DNA of 29,607 nt, taken from IMG/VR virus record IMGVR_UViG_3300045988_163197; one strand, 5' to 3'. Below the pieces are notes generated by a model. That model was not told the DNA's origin. It made no database searches and was given only the letters and a program-made list of their open reading frames with translations. Position 1 is the first letter of the stretch. Each line of letters opens with the position of its first letter. The DNA is from a virus. Position numbers and translations under genes: made by a program. Below are positions 7,665 to 29,607 of the stretch, piece after piece.

Positions 7665-8033
7665 ATGCCGTGCAAAGCGACCAACCCGCAAAACCTTATT
7701 CCGCAAAATGAAAGACCTATTGAAGAAAGGCGAAGAATAGCGGCAATGGGTGGAAAAGCAAGGGGCGAGCAAAAGAAAAGACAAAAGACTTTTAGAGAAG
7801 CACTTGAAACGCTTTTATCGAAAGAAGTAGTCGATAAGAACGGAGATAAGTATGACCTTTTGACGGCAATAAGTGCCAAACAAGTAGAAAAGGCAAGCAA
7901 GGGCGATACAAAGGCTTTTGAAGTTATCCGCGATACGATAGGACAGAAACCCGTTGAAAGAGTTGAAATCACAGAGTGGGACACAAAGATTGCGGGCGAA
8001 ATAGAAGCGTATGTTGACGGACGAAAAGCGTAA
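7665..8033 (+). CDS. terS: terminase small subunit
   Basis: Lies immediately upstream of and overlapping terL. Basic N-terminus (GGKARGEQKKRQK) and the KGDTKAFEVIRDTIGQKP motif are common in small terminases. Confidence 0.7.
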   Translation: MPCKATNPQNLIPQNERPIEERRRIAAMGGKARGEQKKRQKTFREALETLLSKEVVDKNGDKYDLLTAISAKQVEKASKGDTKAFEVIRDTIGQKPVERVEITEWDTKIAGEIEAYVDGRKA

Positions 8034-9270
8034 ATATCTTGACCTTTTAATCGACGAGCCGTACAAGGTTGCTAATTGGTTAGGTTTTACGGGAATAAAC
8101 AAAGAACTCCACAACAAGTGGATACAGGAACTTGTGTTCGGCAAGAACGATTGGACACTGCAAGCGCATCGCGGAAGTTATAAAACTACTTGTGTATCGG
8201 TGGCATTTGCGCTGTATATGATTTTGTTCCCGACAAAGAACATAATCTTTATCAGAAAGACCGATGATGACGTTACGGAGATTATAGAACAGACGAGAAA
8301 GATTTTATCGAGCGACACGATAAAGTTTTTAAGTTATAAATTGTGGGGCAAGCCTGTTGAAATAAAGAAGTCGAACAGCAACGAGATAACGACCAACCTT
8401 TCAGACACGACAAGGGGCGCGGTGCAGTTATTGGGTTTAGGCATTAAAGGGAGTTTGACAGGCAAACACGCGTACTGGGTTCATACGGACGATATAGTCA
8501 ACATCAAAGACCGTGTGAGCCGAGCGGAACGAGAATATACGAAGTCCATTTATATGGAGTTGCAAAATATCAAAATGGTTGGCGGGCGGATAACGAACAC
8601 AGGCACGCCGTGGCACAAAGACGATTGTTTTTCTTTAATGCCGACAGCCGAAAAATACGATGTGTATTCGACGGGGCTTTTGGGGCAGGACGAAATCGAC
8701 AAACTGCGAAAGAGAATGACACCGAGTTTGTTTGCCGCGAACTACGAGTTGAAACACATAGCGAACGAAAACACTTTGCTGAATACACCGCCGAAGTTTG
8801 TTGACGATGTAAACCTTGTGAGACAGGGGAGAGCGCATATCGACGCATCATACGGTGGCGAAGACGGAAGTGTTTTGACGATAGCCAACAGAATAGGCGA
8901 CAAGATATATGTATTAGGCAAACGCCGCCAAGGGCATATAGACAGCCATTTGAACGAGTTTTTGTCGTTATGCAAGGCTTATCAGGCGGGCGTTATTAGA
9001 GTTGAAGATAACGGCGACAAGGGCTATCTTGCAAAGGAAATAATAAAGCGTGGCGGGTATGCAAAGACCTACCACGAGGATATGAACAAATATATCAAAA
9101 TCTCAACATACCTTAAAGCGGAATGGGACAATGTTTACTTCCTGCGCGGAACGGACGAAGAATACATCGACGAAATACTTGACTATTCGGAAGACGCGGC
9201 GCACGACGATAGTCCCGACAGTCTTGCTTGCGTACTACGAGATTACAGCAAAATATACAAGCGGGGTTGA
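8011..9270 (+). CDS. terL: terminase large subunit
   Basis: Walker A-like HRGSYKTT, Walker B-like YWVHTDDIV, C-terminal nuclease-type AHDDSPDSLA. Size and position fit. Confidence 0.85.
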   Translation: MLTDEKRKYLDLLIDEPYKVANWLGFTGINKELHNKWIQELVFGKNDWTLQAHRGSYKTTCVSVAFALYMILFPTKNIIFIRKTDDDVTEIIEQTRKILSSDTIKFLSYKLWGKPVEIKKSNSNEITTNLSDTTRGAVQLLGLGIKGSLTGKHAYWVHTDDIVNIKDRVSRAEREYTKSIYMELQNIKMVGGRITNTGTPWHKDDCFSLMPTAEKYDVYSTGLLGQDEIDKLRKRMTPSLFAANYELKHIANENTLLNTPPKFVDDVNLVRQGRAHIDASYGGEDGSVLTIANRIGDKIYVLGKRRQGHIDSHLNEFLSLCKAYQAGVIRVEDNGDKGYLAKEIIKRGGYAKTYHEDMNKYIKISTYLKAEWDNVYFLRGTDEEYIDEILDYSEDAAHDDSPDSLACVLRDYSKIYKRG

Positions 9271-9273
9271 CCT

Positions 9274-10662
9274 ATGGCAAGTTATCAAATTGATTTTAAG
9301 GACGGCAAAGCAAACAATGCCGCTGATACTTACGCGCTTATTATATCGTATCAAGCGTCGGAGACCTATATCGCCGCAAAAGCGGGGTGGGATTATTATA
9401 TGGGCGAAAACACGACGATAAGTGCAATCGGGCGTTATTATTGGAAGAACAGGGTTGACGAGAACACGGGAAAGGTTGTCGGCGGCGGGTTTGTCGAAAA
9501 TCCGTATGTTGCGAACAACAAAATCGGTTACTCGTTCTTCACGGATATGGTAACGCAAAAGGTTGACACGCTGTTTAGGGAAATACCGACGATTGACGGG
9601 GTTGAACTTCCGAAAGGGTTTGTCAAAACATTCGGGTATGTATTAAGGTCGGCGGCGGAACGCGCATCGGCGCAAGCGGTGAGTTACATATTTGTTGATA
9701 GCGACGGACACCTTAACTGTTTCTCGGCGGATAGGGCGATGCCGTTCTATGACAACGAAACGGGCAAATTAAGGGCGTTGATACGTTGGTGGGAAGTCCC
9801 CGCGCAACGGAAAGATATTCCTTACATCTATTGGGAAGTATATACCGAAGACGGAGTAACGACTTATTGCAATCGACCGACGATACACGAGACGAAACCC
9901 TTAACGCCGTATAAGTATAAGAGAACGAAAAGCATTGTATCGGACGAAATCATCGCGGAAAAAACGCCGTTGCCGATTGTTGAGTTTCTGAACAACGAAT
10001 ACAGGATGAGCGACCTGACGGCAAACATAAGGTCTAAAATCGATATTATCGATATTGTACAATCGGGGTTTGCAAACAACATTGAAGACTTTTCGGATGC
10101 GTTCTGGTCGATTAAAGACAATATCGGCGGCAACGAAGGGTATTATCAAGACTTGGTTTCCGAGATAACGCGCACAAAGGTTATTGTTGCGGACGGTGCG
10201 GAAATGAAACAGTTTCAAATCCCGACGGAAGCGCGGTCAAGGTTTGTCGAGATTATTAAAGACGACCTTATTCGAGACGGCGGTGTAGTGGACACGAAAG
10301 CACTAACGCAGGGCAATCTTACGGCAACAGCGATTAAAGCGGCGCGAGCAAATCTTGAAACAAGGGTATCAAAGTTTGAATGGCAGGCGTATAAATGCGC
10401 GACAGAAGTGTTGGAGTTATATTTCAGATTGCAAGGGAAAGAAATTCCCGAGTTCGATGTTACTTTCAACACTTACCATTTGGACAATGTTACCGAAACC
10501 GTGCAGAACGCGGTATCGCTTCGCGGCACAATAAGCAACGATAGTTACTTGAAGATGTTAAAGAGCGTGAACATTATCGACGATGTGGAAGTCGAAAAGG
10601 CAAAAATGGAAGACGAAAACAACGCACGGTTTGGGTTTGGAAATAAGGGTATTGTAGAATGA
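9274..10662 (+). CDS. portal protein (SPP1 gp6-like by size and position)
   Basis: 462 aa, directly after terL and before the gp7/MuF-like gene. Confidence 0.8.
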   Translation: MASYQIDFKDGKANNAADTYALIISYQASETYIAAKAGWDYYMGENTTISAIGRYYWKNRVDENTGKVVGGGFVENPYVANNKIGYSFFTDMVTQKVDTLFREIPTIDGVELPKGFVKTFGYVLRSAAERASAQAVSYIFVDSDGHLNCFSADRAMPFYDNETGKLRALIRWWEVPAQRKDIPYIYWEVYTEDGVTTYCNRPTIHETKPLTPYKYKRTKSIVSDEIIAEKTPLPIVEFLNNEYRMSDLTANIRSKIDIIDIVQSGFANNIEDFSDAFWSIKDNIGGNEGYYQDLVSEITRTKVIVADGAEMKQFQIPTEARSRFVEIIKDDLIRDGGVVDTKALTQGNLTATAIKAARANLETRVSKFEWQAYKCATEVLELYFRLQGKEIPEFDVTFNTYHLDNVTETVQNAVSLRGTISNDSYLKMLKSVNIIDDVEVEKAKMEDENNARFGFGNKGIVE

Positions 10663-12133: not shown

Positions 12134-12964
12134 ATGGCAATCAATTATGCACAGAAGTATTCTGATGTAGTAGCAGAAGCGTTCAGGCTTCAATCCAAGA
12201 CCGCTGATATCGCAGGCGGCAGATATGATTTTATCGGCGTTAAAACCGTTAAAGTGTATCAGGGCGCAACCGTTGAGTTGGGCGATTACACTATCAGCGG
12301 AAGCAACCGTTTCGGCACGCTCGCTGAACTCGAACTCCCCGTACAGGAAATGACCTTGACGCAGGACAAATCGTTCACTTTCGTTATCGACCGTATGAAT
12401 TACGAAGGCACGAACTTTGCGAACGAAGTCGGCGCAAGACTGCGTGATGAAATCGACCAAGTTGTTATCCCCGCACTCGACGCTTACAGGCTTAAAGCAA
12501 TGGCATCGGCAACGGGTATCACTTCGGCAACCGACACTGCGCCTACCAAAGCAAACGCTTACGAACTGTTCTTGAACGCATCTTCGACTTTGGACGAAAA
12601 CAAAGTCCCCGCTGTTGGCAGAATTGCGTTCGTAACGCCTGATTACCTGAAACTCTTAAAGCAAGACAGTTCTTTCATTCTGCAATCCGACCGTTCAATG
12701 GAAATGTTGCAGAAAGGTATTGTCGGCACTTGCGACGGCGTTGAAGTCCGTATGCTCCCCGCTTCGTACTTCCCCGCAAACAAATACCTCATTATGGCAC
12801 ATCGCGATGCTATCGTTGCTCCCGTCAAACTCACGACTTACCGTATTCTTGACGATGTACAGGGCATTGACGGCAGCGTTGCGGAAGGTCGTGTTGTTCA
12901 CGATTGCTTCGTACTTTCCAACCGCGCAAAAGCGATTTATGTACAAGGCAAAGCGGCGGGCTAA
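12134..12964 (+). CDS. major capsid protein
   Basis: Position after the scaffold gene, strong RBS (AAGGAGAATTAAAATTATG), followed by a strong terminator. Confidence 0.8.
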   Translation: MAINYAQKYSDVVAEAFRLQSKTADIAGGRYDFIGVKTVKVYQGATVELGDYTISGSNRFGTLAELELPVQEMTLTQDKSFTFVIDRMNYEGTNFANEVGARLRDEIDQVVIPALDAYRLKAMASATGITSATDTAPTKANAYELFLNASSTLDENKVPAVGRIAFVTPDYLKLLKQDSSFILQSDRSMEMLQKGIVGTCDGVEVRMLPASYFPANKYLIMAHRDAIVAPVKLTTYRILDDVQGIDGSVAEGRVVHDCFVLSNRAKAIYVQGKAAG

Positions 12965-14134: not shown

Positions 14135-14981
14135 AGATTTGTTTTTACAGTTTATAGAAAAGGAGTTTTCCGATAGTCTGTCGGAAACGGTGAATGTTAC
14201 GAATGATTTGAGCGTCGTGTACGAACAGGAAGTAGATGCGGCGCAAGACTTATATTTCGAGCCGTTCAAGAAAAACCCGAAAGCGGTCGTGATTGTGTTG
14301 TCCACAACGAACGCAAGTCAAACGAACATCCCGCAAGTGTCGTTCACGACGGAGCAGATGTCGATTAAGATACTTTGCAACGAAAACCAAAAACACGATA
14401 TATATAAGGCGATTGACGAGTTTACGAATAAATACAACGCCGTTTATTCGGTGTTGGCAGGCGATACGAAGTCGTACAATATGCAGTTGAACATAAACAA
14501 GCCTTTTGTGGCGGGAATGTATGATATTCCGACGGAAAGCATAGATGACGACGGATGCACGGAGACTTTCGGATATATCACGATACAATGGTTTATCACG
14601 GCAATTTACAGTGATAACATTAAACTCGGCACGGACGAACTCAAAATCAAGGTAGGAACGACAGAATATCCGATTAAAGGACTGTACAGATACACTTTCT
14701 CGGAAAACCCGAACTCGGTCATATACCAAAAAGAGGGGCAGATAAGAGCAACGCACGAAGATGCGGTTTTAACGACCACTTATATCTTTAACTTTCAGTG
14801 TCTCGACGGCGACACGTTGAGTGAGTTATTAGATAGGTCTTTTAACGGCAAAACGGGCGGTATTTACGGTCAAACGCTGTCTTTGGTTATAGACGGTCAA
14901 ACGGTCGAAATGAGCGATTATACGCTTGAAAAGGCGTACGAAAACGGCGTTAAAAGTTACACGCTGACTTTGGTGAAATAA
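14127..14981 (+). CDS. tail structural protein (tube- or adaptor-like)
   Basis: 284 aa, beta-rich sequence, between the neck genes and the large tail protein. Confidence 0.45.
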   Translation: MFEDLFLQFIEKEFSDSLSETVNVTNDLSVVYEQEVDAAQDLYFEPFKKNPKAVVIVLSTTNASQTNIPQVSFTTEQMSIKILCNENQKHDIYKAIDEFTNKYNAVYSVLAGDTKSYNMQLNINKPFVAGMYDIPTESIDDDGCTETFGYITIQWFITAIYSDNIKLGTDELKIKVGTTEYPIKGLYRYTFSENPNSVIYQKEGQIRATHEDAVLTTTYIFNFQCLDGDTLSELLDRSFNGKTGGIYGQTLSLVIDGQTVEMSDYTLEKAYENGVKSYTLTLVK

Positions 14982-15409
14982 TGAGTAAAGAATATCATAT
15001 CTATCTTGACCACAATATAGCGGTTGACGGCGAACAAACTGGCGGGCAGTTGTCCGAAACTTCGTCGCCTGAAAAAAGTGCTAAAAAACAACAGTCGGAA
15101 GCGAAAACGGGAGCGACCGCAAAACTCGTCGGAGTGTACATCGGAAAGCAAGCCTTTCAGTGGGCAACATCGAATTACGGGAATTTGACGGGCGATTATT
15201 TGGGGCAAGCGTGGATAAGCGAGAGCATAGAGTTTGCGGGGCTTGTCGGCGGTATTTTGGCTAAACCCGTACTCGGGAGCGTGATTGCGGCGGCGGTCAT
15301 CGCTAAAAAGGCAACGGATAAATATATCGAACGCACGAAAGCAAATCAAGAAGCGATGCAATTAAGAGAACGCACGGGCAGTCTTTTGAGTAGTGGGGGC
15401 AGGCGATGA
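14981..15409 (+). CDS. small Gly/Ala-rich hydrophobic tail-internal protein (in the tape-measure position)
   Basis: 142 aa. FAGLVGGILAKPVLGSVIAAAVIA segment. ATGA-type coupling on both sides. Confidence 0.4.
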   Translation: MSKEYHIYLDHNIAVDGEQTGGQLSETSSPEKSAKKQQSEAKTGATAKLVGVYIGKQAFQWATSNYGNLTGDYLGQAWISESIEFAGLVGGILAKPVLGSVIAAAVIAKKATDKYIERTKANQEAMQLRERTGSLLSSGGRR

Positions 15410-18044: not shown

Positions 18045-21000
18045 ATGAAAGTTTACTTGAACAAAGAATACAAATGCGTTAAAGTGGAAGATAATACTTT
18101 TGTTGCGAACGACAGTAGCAATTACATAAGATATTATTTTGTAACGAACGCAAACGGCGATGTTATCGACAAAATGGACGATACGAGCGTTATCTATCGC
18201 AACACCGAGCCGAGTTATGTAACGGTGGCGTTTAGGCGTGCGGACGGCGACGTCATCCAACACCTTATGGCAAGTCCGAAAACCGATGCGACGGGAAAAA
18301 GTTTCTTTGAGTACGAAATCACGAACACAGACGGTGTTTTGTACAAAAAAGGCGCGTTGGAAATTTCCGCACAATTTATCGAAGCGACCTTATCGGAAAC
18401 GGGCGGCGTGAAAAAGGTTATCAGTCAAAAGGTCAAAGCGATTGCGATAAACACTGCTCACGTTTTGGATAATATCGGCGAAGAAGCGGAAGAGTATTAT
18501 TCGCAATACGAACAAGCGAACAACGACGCACACGCCGTTTTGCAAACGCAAATAACGACGAACTTTAATAACATCGGCACTTTGCAAGACCTTACGACCG
18601 ATGCCAAAGACGACCTTGTTAAGGCGATAAACGAAGTCGATGCACACGCTGATGCGAACAAGTCTGAAATAGGCGACCTTTCCACTCTTACCACTGACGA
18701 AAAGACCACTATCGTGGGCGCAATCAACGAAGTGGATGCACACGCCGATGCGAATAAAGCCGAAATAGGCAATCTTTCTGCGCTTACCACGGACGAAAAG
18801 GCTACGCTTGTGGGTGCAATCAATGAAGTGGATAATCACGCGGACAACGCCACAACTTTGGCAAACAATGCTGTCGCAACGGCTAACGGTGCAGTCGCCA
18901 CGGCAAACGAAGCGAAGACCACCGCGCAGACCGCCGAAACGAACGCTAATAGTGCGGTAGATACTGCAAACGCCGCAAACGCGACCGCAGACGAAGCAAA
19001 GGCTATCGCGCAAGGAAGTCAACGGGCAATAGGTTTTGCGACTTTACAAGCGGCAATAACGGCGTTAAACGGGTATAGCAACACGCAACTTAAAGTGGGC
19101 GATAATGTCTATATTGTGGAAACGGGAGTGCCTGATTTATGGGTTGCGGCGGTTGAGCCGAACAGTGTGGCTTATAACTACACGACGAACGACGCGTTCA
19201 ACGATGACCTTGTGGAAAATACCCTTGTGCAAGTCGGGTATTACAAGTTTGCGTATCTCGAAAGCGACGGAAAACCTTGCACGGTTGCGTGGCAGAATAT
19301 GACTGTTGCTGAAAGCGATTGGGTTGCGAGTACGGAGTTTGCGGACTTCCCGTATGAAGCGAAGATTATTCTTACGGATTTTGTAAACTTTTCATCTATT
19401 CCGCAAGTGGTGTTCGGACTGACCGAAGCGACGAGCGGGAACTATGCGCCTATTTGTAAAGCGGGCGACAAAGGGGTTTACATTTACAGCAAAGTCAATA
19501 CTGCTATCACGCTCCCGACAGTCGTTACTTTTGCGCCGAATGTACACGGGGCGAGTATGCAAGGCGGCGGCTACACGAACAAAGGTAAATGGGTTGCAAG
19601 CACGACCTATGCAATCGACGACCTTGTTTACACCGACAACGGACAGTTTGTGTGTATCGAAGGTATCACTTCGACGACTTCTCCCGAACAAGACACTACG
19701 CATTGGCAAGCGACTTTTGTTGCGACAGGAAAGACGAAAAACGGGCTTACAATCAGCGGACAAGACAACGGAACGGGAGTGCAAAAGACTTTTGACGGCT
19801 CGCAAGCGGTTGAAGTGGCGTTCGATGAAACCACGATGACGGCGAAAGAAGTCAACGGTGTTTTGAAAGTTGGTGCGAAAGGTACTATCCCCGAAGCGTT
19901 ACCGCAAGAAGCGAGTGCGTTGAAGAGCGGGGAGTTGCCGACAAGCGGGTGGGATACGAATACACCGTTTTTTGAGGGCGAATTAAATTTGCCTTATGGT
20001 GATAACTCGGAAATTAAAATTTGTGACGGGGATTATCGAGCCGTAAAAGTTGACTTAACCGTTACCGCAAAAGCGACAACGAATTATGAGGCAGGAGAAA
20101 ATATATCAACAGTTACTAAAACAAAAAACAGCGGTAGTGCGTCAGTACTTGTTACGTTTTCTTTCTCGTCGTCTCGCTCAAACGACGCACAGTTTATGTT
20201 TAAGGAAGATGGAATATATGTAAAACTATTTAATTCGCCATATACATCTTACGGGTGTAGGCTTACGCTTCTAAAAGCACAGGCTCCACAAGTCGGGGGA
20301 ACACCTTGCTACACTATCTCCGACACTTCCATAACCGCCAACAGCGATATTCTTATGGAACTCACCGACGAGGGCGGAGTAAAGTCCTATTCAATGGAAG
20401 CGGGCAAGATAACCGTTATCCGCGACACCGCACCGACACAGCCTATCCCGTACACCTACAAGGTAAAACAGACCAACGCAAGCGGGCAGTTTACGCTGGT
20501 AAACCATTATGTACCGAGCATACCTGAAAGCCCGACGAGTTTGCCCGTTACTTATAAGAAAGTGAGCGGAGAGTTACCGACGAGTGGGTGGGAAAATGAA
20601 GTTAGGAGTGCCGACTTATGGAACGGTAGTGTAAACGTCGGTGGTTATGGCGGTTCCCCAGCTTATAATGTTCCTGCATCTGCGGAACAAGACCTAAAAA
20701 ACATTGTTTACCACAAAACAGGACGATTATATCTTTACACTGATGACGGAAAGGAATTTGTTTGCACATACTCGGAGTCTGCTTCTACATCATCGGAATA
20801 TACGTACACTGGCATCACGGATGGGATAAAAATGGGAATATCAACCAACGTTGATGCCTCACCTCTTACGATTTCCGCGAGAAACTTAGATAGTGCTAAC
20901 CATACGGTTGTCGCTATGTCCACATACAAACTTGTATCGGGTAATAAAACCTTTACTATCTCCGACACCGATATAACCGCAAACACTTCTGTCAAAATGT

Positions 21001-22040
21001 ACTTAACGGACGAGGGCGGTGTAAAGGCTTATAGCAAAGCAGTGGGCAGTATTCAGGTTATCCGCGATAGCGTGCCGACAACTGCTATTCCTTACGAATA
21101 CGAAGTTGAACAAACGAGTGCAGAAGGGCTTTTTGAGGTCATAAATGCTTATGTACCTACCAAAACAAGTCAACTCACGAACGATAGCGGGTTTGCGAAA
21201 ACGACAGAGGCAAATACTTGGACGGGCGTGCAGACTTTCAGCAATGCCGACGGCATAAAGACCGACCGAGTACATAACCTTGACAATAATGACGCGTGGT
21301 ACAATTTCGACGGGTCGAATAATAGGTTTGGCAGCCCTTCAAGACCAACGATTATTAGGACGAGTGAAGCAAGACCGAGAGCGCAAGTTCCGAGCGGCGA
21401 AACAACGGTAACGAAAGCGATTGCGTTGTTGGAAGATATACCGAGTGCAAGTCAACTCATGAACGATAGCGGGTTTGCGAAAACGACAGAGGCAAATACT
21501 TGGACGGGCGTGCAGACTTTCAGCAATGCCGACGGCATAAAGACCGACCGAGTACATAACCTTGACAATAATGACGCGTGGTACAATTTCGACGGGTCGA
21601 ATAATAGGTTTGGCAGCCCTTCAAGACCAACGATTATTAGGACGAGTGAAGCAAGACCGAGAGCGCAAGTTCCGAGCGGCAAAACAACGGTAACGAAAGC
21701 GATTGCGTTGTTGGAAGATATACCGAGTGCTGGCGAATGGGTAACCGTAACGGGTGAAACAGCGACCTTAACGGAAGCGGGGACTTATCAAGTATTGTTC
21801 GGCGCAAGTTATAGGGTGCAATCAATCATATATTGGGACGGCACAAATGGCGCAGACGGCATATATTCGACCGTGGCAACGGCGGTATCAAATAACAGAA
21901 TATCTATTACTTCTCGATACCCGAGTGTTACCGCTGGCGGCGTGTTGTCGATATATTTCGCTACTGTAACAGCAGACAACGGAGTATGGACAGAAGAAAC
22001 GACAGCGCAATCAGGCTTCAAATACCGTAAAATAAACTAA
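18045..22040 (+). CDS. tail fibre / receptor-binding protein, 1331 aa
   Basis: LTTDxKxxLVGAINEVD repeats, an Ala/Thr/Asn-rich coiled segment, an NTWTGVQTF-type fibre motif, a CBM5/12-like segment, and internal duplications. Confidence 0.85.
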   Translation: MKVYLNKEYKCVKVEDNTFVANDSSNYIRYYFVTNANGDVIDKMDDTSVIYRNTEPSYVTVAFRRADGDVIQHLMASPKTDATGKSFFEYEITNTDGVLYKKGALEISAQFIEATLSETGGVKKVISQKVKAIAINTAHVLDNIGEEAEEYYSQYEQANNDAHAVLQTQITTNFNNIGTLQDLTTDAKDDLVKAINEVDAHADANKSEIGDLSTLTTDEKTTIVGAINEVDAHADANKAEIGNLSALTTDEKATLVGAINEVDNHADNATTLANNAVATANGAVATANEAKTTAQTAETNANSAVDTANAANATADEAKAIAQGSQRAIGFATLQAAITALNGYSNTQLKVGDNVYIVETGVPDLWVAAVEPNSVAYNYTTNDAFNDDLVENTLVQVGYYKFAYLESDGKPCTVAWQNMTVAESDWVASTEFADFPYEAKIILTDFVNFSSIPQVVFGLTEATSGNYAPICKAGDKGVYIYSKVNTAITLPTVVTFAPNVHGASMQGGGYTNKGKWVASTTYAIDDLVYTDNGQFVCIEGITSTTSPEQDTTHWQATFVATGKTKNGLTISGQDNGTGVQKTFDGSQAVEVAFDETTMTAKEVNGVLKVGAKGTIPEALPQEASALKSGELPTSGWDTNTPFFEGELNLPYGDNSEIKICDGDYRAVKVDLTVTAKATTNYEAGENISTVTKTKNSGSASVLVTFSFSSSRSNDAQFMFKEDGIYVKLFNSPYTSYGCRLTLLKAQAPQVGGTPCYTISDTSITANSDILMELTDEGGVKSYSMEAGKITVIRDTAPTQPIPYTYKVKQTNASGQFTLVNHYVPSIPESPTSLPVTYKKVSGELPTSGWENEVRSADLWNGSVNVGGYGGSPAYNVPASAEQDLKNIVYHKTGRLYLYTDDGKEFVCTYSESASTSSEYTYTGITDGIKMGISTNVDASPLTISARNLDSANHTVVAMSTYKLVSGNKTFTISDTDITANTSVKMYLTDEGGVKAYSKAVGSIQVIRDSVPTTAIPYEYEVEQTSAEGLFEVINAYVPTKTSQLTNDSGFAKTTEANTWTGVQTFSNADGIKTDRVHNLDNNDAWYNFDGSNNRFGSPSRPTIIRTSEARPRAQVPSGETTVTKAIALLEDIPSASQLMNDSGFAKTTEANTWTGVQTFSNADGIKTDRVHNLDNNDAWYNFDGSNNRFGSPSRPTIIRTSEARPRAQVPSGKTTVTKAIALLEDIPSAGEWVTVTGETATLTEAGTYQVLFGASYRVQSIIYWDGTNGADGIYSTVATAVSNNRISITSRYPSVTAGGVLSIYFATVTADNGVWTEETTAQSGFKYRKIN
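18579..18866 (+). repeat. three tandem 96-bp (32-aa) coding repeats
   Basis: Units start at 18579, 18675 and 18771: (D/N)LS(T/A)LTTDEK(T/A)T(I/L)VGAINEVD(A/N)HAD. Confidence 0.85.
21171..21730 (+). repeat. near-perfect 282-bp tandem duplication inside the fibre gene
   Basis: Copy 1 is 21171-21452 and copy 2 is 21453-21730. I saw only two differences: C/T at 21178 vs 21460 (Thr/Met), and one G/A substitution in GGCGAAACA vs GGCAAAACA (Glu/Lys). Confidence 0.9.
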
Positions 22041-22053
22041 AAGGAGATAAACT

Positions 22054-23295
22054 ATGTACGGAATAAGTAACAGTCAACAACAAGGTGGGGGCGGCGGTAG
22101 TGCCGCTTCCTACAAGGCTATAAAATCAACGCTTACACCGAGCGATTGGCAGGAAGTAGCAGGTGCAACGCCGTATTTTATAGGCGAAAACGCTATGCAA
22201 TGGACGGTGAACGGCGATGGCGACTACGAAAAATCTCAAACAACAAAACTCGGACTTGTAGCAGGCAATAGTTATACGATAACTGCTGTTTGCGATGGAC
22301 AAACTTACACGCAAACGGCGGTCGCAGCAGGTGACGAAGCAAACGGAATAGCAATAAGTTATGACCTTCATCCCCAAGTTTCTATGTTTGTTGATATTTA
22401 TGATGATAATACGGGTTCAAAATGTGTTATATATGTTGAGGCAACAAGTTTCGTCATTACAAAATTCGAGGGCGAAGGTTTCGGTTCAGGTTGCAGAGCA
22501 ACCATATCCGACAGTGCAATCAAAGTCAATTCAGCAGTCACATTATATACAAACACAAGTGAGAAAATCGCCGTCGGAGAAAAAACGAATGGCAATGTAA
22601 CATTGATAGCCGATAGTATTCCTGTAACTTCTATACCTTACAGCCTTGAAATTGTCGGCACAGACACGGAAGGACTTTTTGAACTTATAAACGGATATAT
22701 CCCGCCGACGATAGAAGTGCCGACAGCACTGCCTCAAAAAACAAGTGCGATTAAAACTGGGACTTTGCCAAAAGGAGGGTCGCGTGTTGAGATAACTGAC
22801 AGCGAAATTACTGCGACAAGCGATATTGTAGTCGATGTCTCGTATAAGAAAAAGGTTACTGGCGGACTTGCTCCTGGGATGTTAGCACTTGTTTTAAGCA
22901 ACGGCGAAGTAGCAGATGAAGACATTTCGTTCGAGTATAAAATTAAACAAACAGACGGAGAAGGTCAATTCACGGTAGTGAACAGTTACATCCCTCAACA
23001 AATACTACCATTAGAAAAGAACGTAACAAACGAAAGCACCTCATTGGGACAAAAAGTTGTAACAATTACTGGTACCGCGAAACCGTATTTGTTTACCGTA
23101 AAAGACAGTGATGTATCTGCATCAGTTTTTGTTCGTCTTTATCCTGCCGACGAAAACACTGAAACCTGGCTTAATGAACATACTTTATCAAGTATAATTA
23201 CAGAAGAAAGTCATCAATTCACTTTTAAGGTAGATACAAATACATTGCCGACCACTTTTAGTATAAAATATATTATCGAAACCCTTACAAAGTAA
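22054..23295 (+). CDS. second tail fibre / receptor-binding protein, 413 aa
   Basis: Shares the linker motif and the ~70-aa module with the 1331-aa fibre. AAAGGAG RBS. Confidence 0.75.
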   Translation: MYGISNSQQQGGGGGSAASYKAIKSTLTPSDWQEVAGATPYFIGENAMQWTVNGDGDYEKSQTTKLGLVAGNSYTITAVCDGQTYTQTAVAAGDEANGIAISYDLHPQVSMFVDIYDDNTGSKCVIYVEATSFVITKFEGEGFGSGCRATISDSAIKVNSAVTLYTNTSEKIAVGEKTNGNVTLIADSIPVTSIPYSLEIVGTDTEGLFELINGYIPPTIEVPTALPQKTSAIKTGTLPKGGSRVEITDSEITATSDIVVDVSYKKKVTGGLAPGMLALVLSNGEVADEDISFEYKIKQTDGEGQFTVVNSYIPQQILPLEKNVTNESTSLGQKVVTITGTAKPYLFTVKDSDVSASVFVRLYPADENTETWLNEHTLSSIITEESHQFTFKVDTNTLPTTFSIKYIIETLTK

Positions 23296-23310
23296 GAATA
23301 GGAGACTGTT

Positions 23311-23463
23311 ATGGGATATGTGGAACTTAAAACAGGGCAAGTGGCGTTAAGACCAGCGGGAGATTTAAGTAGCCGATATACGATTGTATGGGAAGGTGCA
23401 GAACAAACAGGTACCGACTGGCAGTATAAGGCATTACCAGACGGAGGGTATTATTGTAGTTGA
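23311..23463 (+). CDS. 50-aa ORF ending at TGA 23461. The same frame stays open to 23799.
   Basis: AGGAG 6 nt before ATG 23311. My own translation: MGYVELKTGQVALRPAGDLSSRYTIVWEGAEQTGTDWQYKALPDGGYYCS*. Confidence 0.6.
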   Translation: MGYVELKTGQVALRPAGDLSSRYTIVWEGAEQTGTDWQYKALPDGGYYCS

Positions 23464-23484
23464 CTATGGTATATAACTCCCTCA

Positions 23485-23799
23485 GTGCCGTTTAACACTG
23501 CTGATACACTTGTTCTTAATACTGATAAGATAACTAATGATACGCCTTTGTATACTGTCGTACAACAGAGTGATTATCTTGACTTAGGAGACGATGCGTT
23601 AAGTAGAATTTTTGCAAACGTTACAAAAGTATGGAGACATACAACAACATCTGGTTCTGGGGAAACGCCTAACGTAACAACGTGGGAAGTGTGGCTGTTT
23701 AATAATGGGAAATTTGGACTTTTTGGATACCAGAAAGAAGCTGGATATGTCTACGGTTATCCAGTATGGATAGAAAAATTATGGAAAAACAAGGAGTAA
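23485..23799 (+). CDS. 104-aa ORF-track ORF, probably the continuation of 23311-23463 rather than an independent gene
   Basis: Begins at a GTG with no RBS and contains no ATG codon. It is in the same frame as the upstream ORF, and the codons between them (LWYITPS) are open. Confidence 0.4.
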   Translation: MPFNTADTLVLNTDKITNDTPLYTVVQQSDYLDLGDDALSRIFANVTKVWRHTTTSGSGETPNVTTWEVWLFNNGKFGLFGYQKEAGYVYGYPVWIEKLWKNKE

Positions 23800-23802
23800 A
23801 TT

Positions 23803-24036
23803 ATGGAAGAAAAAATCTTACTTATCGGCAAACTAATACAAGAGGGTATCGAGGGCGAAGCGGAAGCGTTAAAAGACTACAACCGAGAACTCGCGGAAAT
23901 CTATGCCCTTGACGCGGAAACGGGCGACAAATGTGCTCCTGTCATTGCGGAAATCATATCCGACGAACTCAATCATATCGCTAAACTTACGGCATTGTAC
24001 ACCGAACTTACGGGCATTGCCGAGAACAAGGAGTAA
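23803..24036 (+). CDS. 77-aa helical protein with a ferritin-like E...Y...ExxH pattern
   Basis: AAGGAG RBS. GEAEALKDY ... ISDELNHIAKL. The gene call is solid; the function is tentative. Confidence 0.7.
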   Translation: MEEKILLIGKLIQEGIEGEAEALKDYNRELAEIYALDAETGDKCAPVIAEIISDELNHIAKLTALYTELTGIAENKE

Positions 24037-24038
24037 TT

Positions 24039-24512
24039 ATGGAACTGAACATTAAACTTATCGGAAACATCGGACGGCTGAACAAGAGAGAGCCTTTTAT
24101 TTTGGCAGACAATGAAAAACTTGTCCTTAACTTTTCCTGCGCCACGCCTTTGACAGATTATTATATCGAACTCAAAAACGGCGACAAATCGGCAAAATAC
24201 AGGCTTTCTTCGGTATCTTCCTATGAAGTGCCGAACGAACTCTTGCAGGCGGGTACACTTGAAGTTACGGTCAGCCTTTTATATTGCGGAAAAATCGTCG
24301 TTACCTACACCGTCGAGCCTATCGTCATTGCTCTTATAGACAACGGCTACAAGGGCTTTGCGGAACTCGACGAAGTAAAGGCGAAATACGACCTTCTTAT
24401 GGCGAACTACAACGAACTTGTCAGCAAGATAAATCAGGTTATCGACACCGCGAACAGACAACAGGAAGATATCCAAAAACTGTACAACGCGGTTGAACAA
24501 GGCGAATTTTAA
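24039..24512 (+). CDS. hypothetical 157-aa protein, beta-rich N-terminus plus C-terminal coiled coil
   Basis: AAGGAG RBS. Heptad-like C-terminus ELDEVKAKYDLLMANYNELVSKINQVIDTANRQQEDIQKLYN. Confidence 0.7.
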   Translation: MELNIKLIGNIGRLNKREPFILADNEKLVLNFSCATPLTDYYIELKNGDKSAKYRLSSVSSYEVPNELLQAGTLEVTVSLLYCGKIVVTYTVEPIVIALIDNGYKGFAELDEVKAKYDLLMANYNELVSKINQVIDTANRQQEDIQKLYNAVEQGEF

Positions 24513-28847: not shown

Positions 28848-29558
28848 ATGATAGAAATTGACAAGGTATATAATATGGACTGCCTTGACCTTATGCGAGA
28901 AATGGCAAATAATGGGGTGCTTGTTGACGGTATAATAACAGACCCGCCATATTTAATTGATTATAAAACAGGGCGGAGACAAGACAAAGACGACAAATTT
29001 TGCAAGGCGATTATCGGTGATAGCGACGAGCAACTTATTACCGACTACATAAAATTATGTTACGACATAATGAAAGATAACACGGCAATTTATTGTTTTT
29101 GCAATGCTGACAAGATAGACGTTTTTAAGCGTGAAATAGATAAATATTTCACAATAAAAAATATCATAATATGGGTTAAGAATAATTGGACGGCGGGCGA
29201 CCTTGAAGCGCAAATGGGAAAACAGTATGAGATGTGTATTTATGCAAACAAAGGACGAGCGTGTTTTAATGATAACTTAAAAAGACCTACGGATATATGG
29301 TATTGCAATCGTGTTTCAGGAAATGACCAGATACACCAAAATCAAAAACCACTTGACTTGATTTATAAAATGTTACAATTATCAACAAAAAAAGACGATA
29401 TAATTTTTGACGGATTTATGGGAAGTTTTACAACGGCGGTTGCTTGCCACAAAATGCAAAGGCACTTTATCGGCGCGGAACTTGACAAGGAATATTTTGC
29501 ACTCGGACAAAAGCGATTGCAAGAAGTACAAAATCAAATATCAATGTTTGACTTATAA
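28848..29558 (+). CDS. DNA N6-adenine / N4-cytosine methyltransferase (beta class)
   Basis: Catalytic IITDPPY comes before the AdoMet motif IIFDGFMGSFTT (order IV then I). Confidence 0.9.
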   Translation: MIEIDKVYNMDCLDLMREMANNGVLVDGIITDPPYLIDYKTGRRQDKDDKFCKAIIGDSDEQLITDYIKLCYDIMKDNTAIYCFCNADKIDVFKREIDKYFTIKNIIIWVKNNWTAGDLEAQMGKQYEMCIYANKGRACFNDNLKRPTDIWYCNRVSGNDQIHQNQKPLDLIYKMLQLSTKKDDIIFDGFMGSFTTAVACHKMQRHFIGAELDKEYFALGQKRLQEVQNQISMFDL

Positions 29559-29607
29559 GGAGTGAAAAAATGAATGAAAATAAAATAATAATACATATAA
29601 TCGACGT
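29553..29607. repeat. Terminal overlap, copy 2 (identical to 1-55). Includes the duplicated start of the 62-aa ORF at 29570.
   Basis: Direct comparison with nt 1-55. Confidence 0.95.

Follow-up and report, generated by a model that had tools for sequence, protein, structure and literature searches.

The in-frame TGA at positions 23461-23463 of this phage genome is, with a probability that we put at about 0.85, a very recent nonsense mutation, a G-to-A change at position 23463 which altered the Trp51 codon of a non-essential and swappable tail-region gene. All positions refer to the window, i.e. the whole stretch of 29,607 nt of DNA that was analysed. A first-pass annotation of the sequence had favoured programmed read-through of the stop and had named a fresh pseudogene or a nonsense mutation as an alternative. 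It is this alternative that gains support here, the ancestral TGG being one substitution away and carried by the closest relatives. A programmed signal is expected to be conserved and the stop is a polymorphism within one strain; programmed read-through is therefore not supported.

The interrupted gene is a single gene of 162 codons plus TAA on the plus strand (23311..23799), which is broken at codon 51 and has full-length homologues across the stop. A Shine-Dalgarno sequence, AGGAG (23299..23303, plus strand), was read directly, with a spacer of 6 nt to the ATG at 23311; the same motif is found in the closest relative (L001). Codons 1-50 (23311..23460, plus strand) are the sole translated part if termination takes place at the TGA, and their product is recorded as P0034. 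The premature opal stop at codon 51 (23461..23463, plus strand) is followed by a C and derives from the Trp codon TGG. Behind it, 111 sense codons, codons 52-162 (23464..23796, plus strand), continue in the same frame as the intact rest of the gene and end with TAA at 23797-23799. The coordinates of this arrangement, from the AGGAG and its spacing through the 50 codons and the TGA-C to the end of the open frame at 23799, were all confirmed as first described. The start chosen by the ORF finder for a 104-aa ORF, GTG at 23485..23487 (plus strand), is not a conserved start; at this position intact relatives have Met, Val or Ile, and most relatives have ATG. In-frame starts 3' of the TGA are restricted to GTG 23485, TTG 23548 and GTG 23689, none of which is preceded by an SD-like sequence. 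With no in-frame ATG among them, the downstream part indeed has neither ATG nor SD, as had been noted. Several off-frame open stretches of 100-138 codons are present in the window, so that an open frame of about 110 codons is unremarkable and homology, not length, shows coding. In the full-length product, the predicted tryptic peptide spanning codon 51 is ALPDGGYYCSWLWYITPSVPFNTADTLVLNTDK, and a downstream peptide is ITNDTPLYTVVQQSDYLDLGDDALSR.

The joined 162-aa product aligns with proteins of 163-165 aa at 100% coverage across the stop (E 4e-102, 4e-96 and 7e-76), the full-length homologues having 162-166 aa overall, and also matches a 154-aa protein with 44% identity. Because full-length homologues bridge the stop, the 50-aa and 104-aa ORFs are, as judged from these alignments, one gene. 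The earlier proposal that the two ORFs belong together is thus confirmed end to end. Among the relatives, the 50-aa part was found as a separate gene in none except carriers of the same TGA allele. The codon-51 site is covered by 33 of the 35 relatives that were aligned, with Trp in 31, Val in one and Tyr in one. Four close relatives have AGT TGG CTA TGG in their DNA, against AGT TGA CTA TGG in the window, and wherever the DNA of relatives was read, Trp at codon 51 is encoded by TGG. Comparison with homologues, which the first-pass annotation had named as a way to distinguish a sense codon from a shared TGA, accordingly gives Trp, and TGG in every close relative read at the DNA level. The alignments thus show that one G-to-A transition in a conserved Trp codon gave rise to the TGA. 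A blastn search of 23000-24100 against INPHARED phage records gave no match, and exact-pattern and protein-guided scans of IMG/VR contigs, together with GTDB genomes, did not yield the gene.

Both codons occur within one strain. TGA is carried by L010 (ENA ERZ653814, ~30x), L011 (SRR5155795) and L012 (SRR5156194), which show 100.000% identity to the window over 12.3, 6.8 and 6.4 kb, respectively. With the JGI contig of the window itself, this makes four assemblies for the TGA allele, which derive from three pipelines and a minimum of two sequencing runs. TGG is carried in the same strain by L020 (SRR5156103), L024 (ENA ERZ28624084, SAMN06164849) and L029 (ENA ERZ654501), which were found as contigs encoding the identical 157-aa neighbour. 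L024 differs from the window by one mismatch in 5,288 nt, and this mismatch is position 23463 (A in the window, G in L024). L020 and L029 have three mismatches each, in 6,065 and 3,260 nt; two of them fall within a 282-bp tandem repeat and the third is again 23463. When the window protein with W51 was used in tblastn, identity was 100% over 162 aa in all three TGG contigs. The 111 codons 3' of the stop are identical to the intact sibling allele, i.e. there is no secondary decay. As far as the assemblies show, TGA is very probably a real allele that segregates in the strain rather than a random read error, and its presence in several runs and pipelines makes a one-off sequencing error unlikely.

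The intact allele was found on six contigs and the 50-aa fragment is indexed in nine collection blocks (JGI, Logan, ENA); these collections partly re-assemble the same public runs, and independent samples may number only two for TGA and one to two for TGG. The run accessions suggest a single study. TGA and TGG assemblies of the strain are about equal in number, which shows that the nonsense allele is not quickly purged and makes neutrality or even an advantage possible. The only amino-acid changes that set the window lineage apart from the 35 relatives are D62N and P86Q, at nearly invariant positions that both lie downstream of the stop. Relaxed constraint 3' of the stop was considered as their cause and rejected, since the TGG sibling also has D62N and P86Q and both changes are therefore older than the stop. 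Change driven by a diversity-generating retroelement (DGR) was rejected as well, the window having no reverse transcriptase and only one site varying.

L010 wraps from the window end to its start, and the window ends form an exact direct repeat of 55 nt (1-55 and 29553-29607). The genome in the window is therefore complete, with a length of about 29.55 kb, and either circular or circularly permuted. It is a tailed-phage genome with every gene on one strand. In map order, the identified genes encode Erf-like and NinB-like recombination proteins, the terminase (8011-9270), an SPP1-type portal (9274-10662), a Mu F-like protein, the major head protein (12134-12964) and an 872-aa protein. A 1331-aa fibre-like protein (18045-22040, plus strand; weak PHROG tail-fibre match to phrog_25848, E 8e-9) and a 413-aa protein of no family (22054-23295, plus strand) precede the interrupted gene, the latter directly. 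After it, the map continues with small proteins and membrane proteins, followed by a replisome organiser, a DnaC-like loader and a pair of DNA methyltransferases. The methyltransferases (C5 type PF00145; N4/N6 type PF01555), at 211-1305 and 28848-29558, flank the arbitrary window ends. The proteins scanned include no recognisable integrase or endolysin. For the portal, the nearest relatives lie on contigs binned with uncultured Clostridia and Lachnospiraceae, cultured phages showing only 28% identity. This is an uncultured gut phage, probably with a host among the Clostridia, the host being assigned from two metagenome-assembled genomes only.

Some features of the genome and its relatives were observed beside the interrupted gene. 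The gene for the 1331-aa fibre-like protein contains a 282-bp tandem duplication at 21166-21730 (2.0 copies, 99% identical), which doubles a segment of about 94 aa. Sibling contigs of 29,325 bp have the length of the window (29,607) minus 282, and L020 aligns as a single copy; the size gap and this alignment indicate that the repeat copy number varies between strains or that assemblers collapse the repeat. Near the N-terminus of the fibre-like protein, a 96-nt tandem repeat at 18630-18833 (2.1 copies, 82% identical) encodes segments of the form ...AINEVDAHADANK.EIG.LS.LTTDEK... Exact matches to two window proteins, of 77 aa (23803-24036) and 142 aa (14981-15409), are on record on at least 1,000 contigs each, and a 168-aa membrane protein of the window is on record on 714 contigs. 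This phage group is very common in public metagenomes and is without a cultured relative.

The gene is dispensable or exchangeable. Among ten contexts with the identical 157-aa neighbour, it is present in three, all of them assemblies of the same strain; its place is taken in the remaining contexts by a reverse transcriptase or by unrelated genes of 341-409 aa, for which Pfam gave no family. The stretch 22054-23799, from the fibre-like gene to the 77-aa gene, is a swap hot-spot (loci L020-L029); 3' of about 23790, seven other contexts show 90-93% identity, and the genes 5' of that point are unrelated. The reverse transcriptase, a 357-aa protein (L025:336-1409; Pfam RVT_1, E 4.5e-15) encoded at the position of the gene beside the identical 157-aa neighbour, may belong to a diversity-generating retroelement next to tail genes. 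A template/variable repeat pair was not found in 5 kb of L025, a contig that begins just upstream.

Relatives of the gene carry lesions of their own. Codon W27 is changed from TGG to TAG in L015 (2825-2835), codon Y89 from TAT to TAA in L019 (780-785), and a 1-nt deletion at codon 46 (GGAGGG to GGAGG) is present in L013 (~1030) and L014 (~867), from two runs. In L013-L015, the module belongs to a long form (about 450 aa), of which it makes up the C-terminal portion. Read-through of UGA cannot account for these TAG, TAA and frameshift lesions. With the TGA, the family shows four independent lesions (TGA, TAG, TAA and 1-nt deletion), which led us to consider that the gene is unusually prone to inactivation. 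This idea was weakened by the neighbour-gene clusters, which also hold short or frameshift-looking variants at the protein level (e.g. P0056, P0097, P0116), so that no excess of lesions in this gene can be claimed.

The gene product is a putative accessory tail-region protein. Pfam and PHROG scans of the joined protein revealed no family, and an exhaustive HMMER search yielded only six representatives, one of which is P0040, a long form of 457 aa. The window protein and P0040 begin with the same ~15 residues, MGYVELKTGQVALRP, which are followed in the window protein by a predicted all-beta module of about 140 aa. In P0040, a poly-proline linker and then repeats that extend over about 290 aa separate the shared N-terminus of 15 residues from the shared C-terminal module. 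The insert of P0040 contains, by eye, about five S-x-D-x-G-x-T-W motifs (Asp-box/BNR-like) at beta-propeller-like spacing; Pfam gave nothing for P0040 at E 0.01 or better. From the modular layout and the gene position we infer an accessory distal-tail or receptor-binding cassette. AlphaFold2 predicted an all-beta structure with low confidence (pLDDT 55, pTM 0.50), in which residue 51 is placed within a strand (47-55) of a single all-beta domain. With this model as query, Foldseek found nothing in the PDB below E 0.1.

In TGA carriers, most ribosomes would be expected to stop after 50 residues. The resulting fragment would end after the second or third strand of the beta domain and is presumably non-functional. 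UGA is the leakiest stop codon, and tRNA-Trp misreads it in E. coli and B. subtilis (PMC5289835). A few of the ribosomes may thus pass the stop when ordinary tRNA-Trp misreads UGA by near-cognate C-A wobble. Since the ancestral residue is Trp, such read-through by tRNA-Trp would restore the exact wild-type protein of 162 aa. On these considerations, which take the fragment to be inactive and presume how often, and by which tRNA, the stop is read through, the TGA allele is probably a leaky hypomorph; it would be neither a null allele nor a designed system of two isoforms. That it is tolerated would follow from the accessory nature of the gene.

Several other explanations of the TGA were weighed. 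If the codon were decoded by a reassigned or special code (code 4, phage TGA-to-Trp recoding or selenocysteine), the Trp of the homologues would match what code 4 inserts, and late genes with recoded stops have been described in gut phages (bioRxiv 10.1101/2021.08.26.457843). We give this explanation practically no credence, and code 4, phage-type TGA recoding and selenocysteine are all excluded at the sequence level. ARAGORN found no tRNA genes in the complete genome, hence no suppressor tRNA. One in-frame TGA stands against 113 TGG (37 genes, 9,054 codons), TGA is the stop codon of about 19 other genes (20 of 43 called ORFs if the 50-codon fragment is counted), and the other window genes that are comparable with L006, L007, L013 and L016 are all colinear and have no internal stops. 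Selenocysteine had been held unlikely for want of an obvious SECIS-like hairpin. This is corroborated, as neither folding nor Rfam revealed a SECIS hairpin 3' of the UGA and codon 51 is Trp, Val or Tyr, never Cys or Sec, in the 33 relatives. Stimulatory signals for read-through were likewise not detected; 106 nt of 23455-23560 folded no better than shuffles (z +0.57), and an Rfam scan of 22800-24300 gave no match. UGA-C is reportedly a weak terminator in E. coli, a finding attributed to Poole et al. 1995. Among the approximately 19 other TGA stops of the window, about nine lie in ATGA overlaps, ten have A as the next base and six have C. The last group includes the stops of the terminase (9268-9270) and the portal (10660-10662), which makes TGA-C an ordinary terminator context in this genome. 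The first-pass annotation had placed most TGA stops in ATGA overlaps and had read these as TGA-A, with TGA-C as the exception. The overlaps stand for about nine of the approximately 19 stops; the special status of UGA-C does not, and equating ATGA with TGA-A was mistaken, since the overlap tells nothing about the base after TGA.

It is unlikely that selection keeps the TGA as a translational attenuator, with TGG and TGA as a switch between high and low expression. The residue inserted at read-through would match the ancestral Trp, TGA is about as frequent as TGG among the assemblies of the strain and is present in a complete genome at ~30x, no further decay has occurred 3' of it, and UGA is leakier than the other stop codons (PMC5289835). 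All this would suit a selected leaky stop. However, no diverged relative has the stop, and at one base from its sibling the allele is too young for selection to be visible; there is no stimulatory RNA structure, and TGA-C ends six other genes, terminase and portal included. The TAG, TAA and frameshift lesions of other lineages point to plain loss, and broken-looking variants occur in neighbouring genes, too. A specific form of this explanation, in which TGG/TGA is kept as a dosage switch providing a few percent of wild-type accessory tail protein via tRNA-Trp at UGA-C in a Clostridia host, appears slightly less likely again. A sequencing or assembly artefact with TGG as the true codon is very unlikely: L010 (TGA) and L024 (TGG) are both 29,325 bp long, come from different pipelines and possibly represent the same sample, as an artefact would allow, yet TGA is present in the Logan contigs of SRR5155795 and SRR5156194, in the ENA assembly at ~30x and in the JGI contig, which are identical elsewhere, and a repeated consensus is not expected of random error. 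Still more doubtful is a split gene, the 50-aa and 104-aa parts being made separately by re-initiation at GTG 23485, 21 nt past the stop. Most relatives do have ATG at this position, the frameshifted ORF of L013/L014 stops shortly before that ATG, and gene callers give two adjacent genes; but GTG 23485 has no SD, the position is occupied by Met, Val or Ile in intact relatives, the break is placed inside one beta domain (in the low-confidence model), and the arrangement is seen only in lineages that bear lesions. The recent nonsense mutation of Trp51 therefore remains the explanation that we prefer.

A nonsense mutation of Trp51 has consequences for annotation, as P0034, P0020 and P0021 (the 50-aa and 104-aa ORFs, entered in public protein collections from JGI, Logan and ENA assemblies) should be regarded as pieces of one 162-aa gene with a premature stop and not as a recoding site. 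It also provides a small case of micro-evolution in a prevalent gut phage, in which a nonsense SNP is at consensus level in some samples and genomes with the intact codon are, apart from the mismatches given above, identical to TGA carriers over the 3-6 kb compared. If the samples are time points of one person, selection on an accessory tail gene could be followed directly in the allele frequencies at 23463. Should the dosage switch be true, the allele would mark, at a single codon, a natural step in the direction of the late-gene TGA-to-Trp recoding of other gut phages.

Recoded gut phages (Borges et al., bioRxiv 10.1101/2021.08.26.457843) share with the window a gut phage setting and a late or structural gene with a stop where relatives have the recoded residue. 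The recoding types described are TAG to Gln and TGA to Trp, and recoded phages have many in-frame stops in recoded late genes, a codon depleted as terminator and usually suppressor tRNAs (bioRxiv 10.1101/2021.08.26.457843). The window, in contrast, has one in-frame TGA, nearly half of its genes end in TGA, and it has no tRNA. The mosaic distal tail and receptor-binding cassettes of siphophages are another system to which the gene is similar: it lies after fibre-like genes, unrelated genes are found there in siblings, its N-terminal segment is conserved, and its long form has an inserted domain of repeats with S-x-D-x-G-x-T-W (Asp-box-like) motifs. It differs from these cassettes in that the window gene has no family assignment, its link to the tail coming from gene position and layout only.

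In Q-beta A1, as in the window, a UGA lies in a gene of the phage structural region with an open frame behind it, and tRNA-Trp is the expected decoder. The conserved stop of Q-beta comes at the end of a complete coat protein, to which read-through adds a further domain that the virion requires. The stop of the window, in contrast, is a strain-level SNP at a conserved Trp, apparently in the middle of a domain, and relatives encode one uninterrupted protein. The short and long isoforms for which the first-pass annotation had taken Q-beta A1 as a model are thus a poor fit to a stop that appears, in the low-confidence model, to lie mid-strand in one domain. The closest parallel in kind is provided by opal (UGA) nonsense mutants such as the leaky opal mutants of coliphages, in which one base turns a sense codon into UGA and the gene is otherwise intact. 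As in these mutants, residual expression would be expected via tRNA-Trp, and the read-through product of the window gene would be wild type. Such leakiness is common to opal mutations at Trp codons in general and is not programmed. Unlike the classical opal mutants, the allele of the window arose and spread naturally, in an uncultured phage of a gut metagenome; it is an ordinary event of an already known kind.
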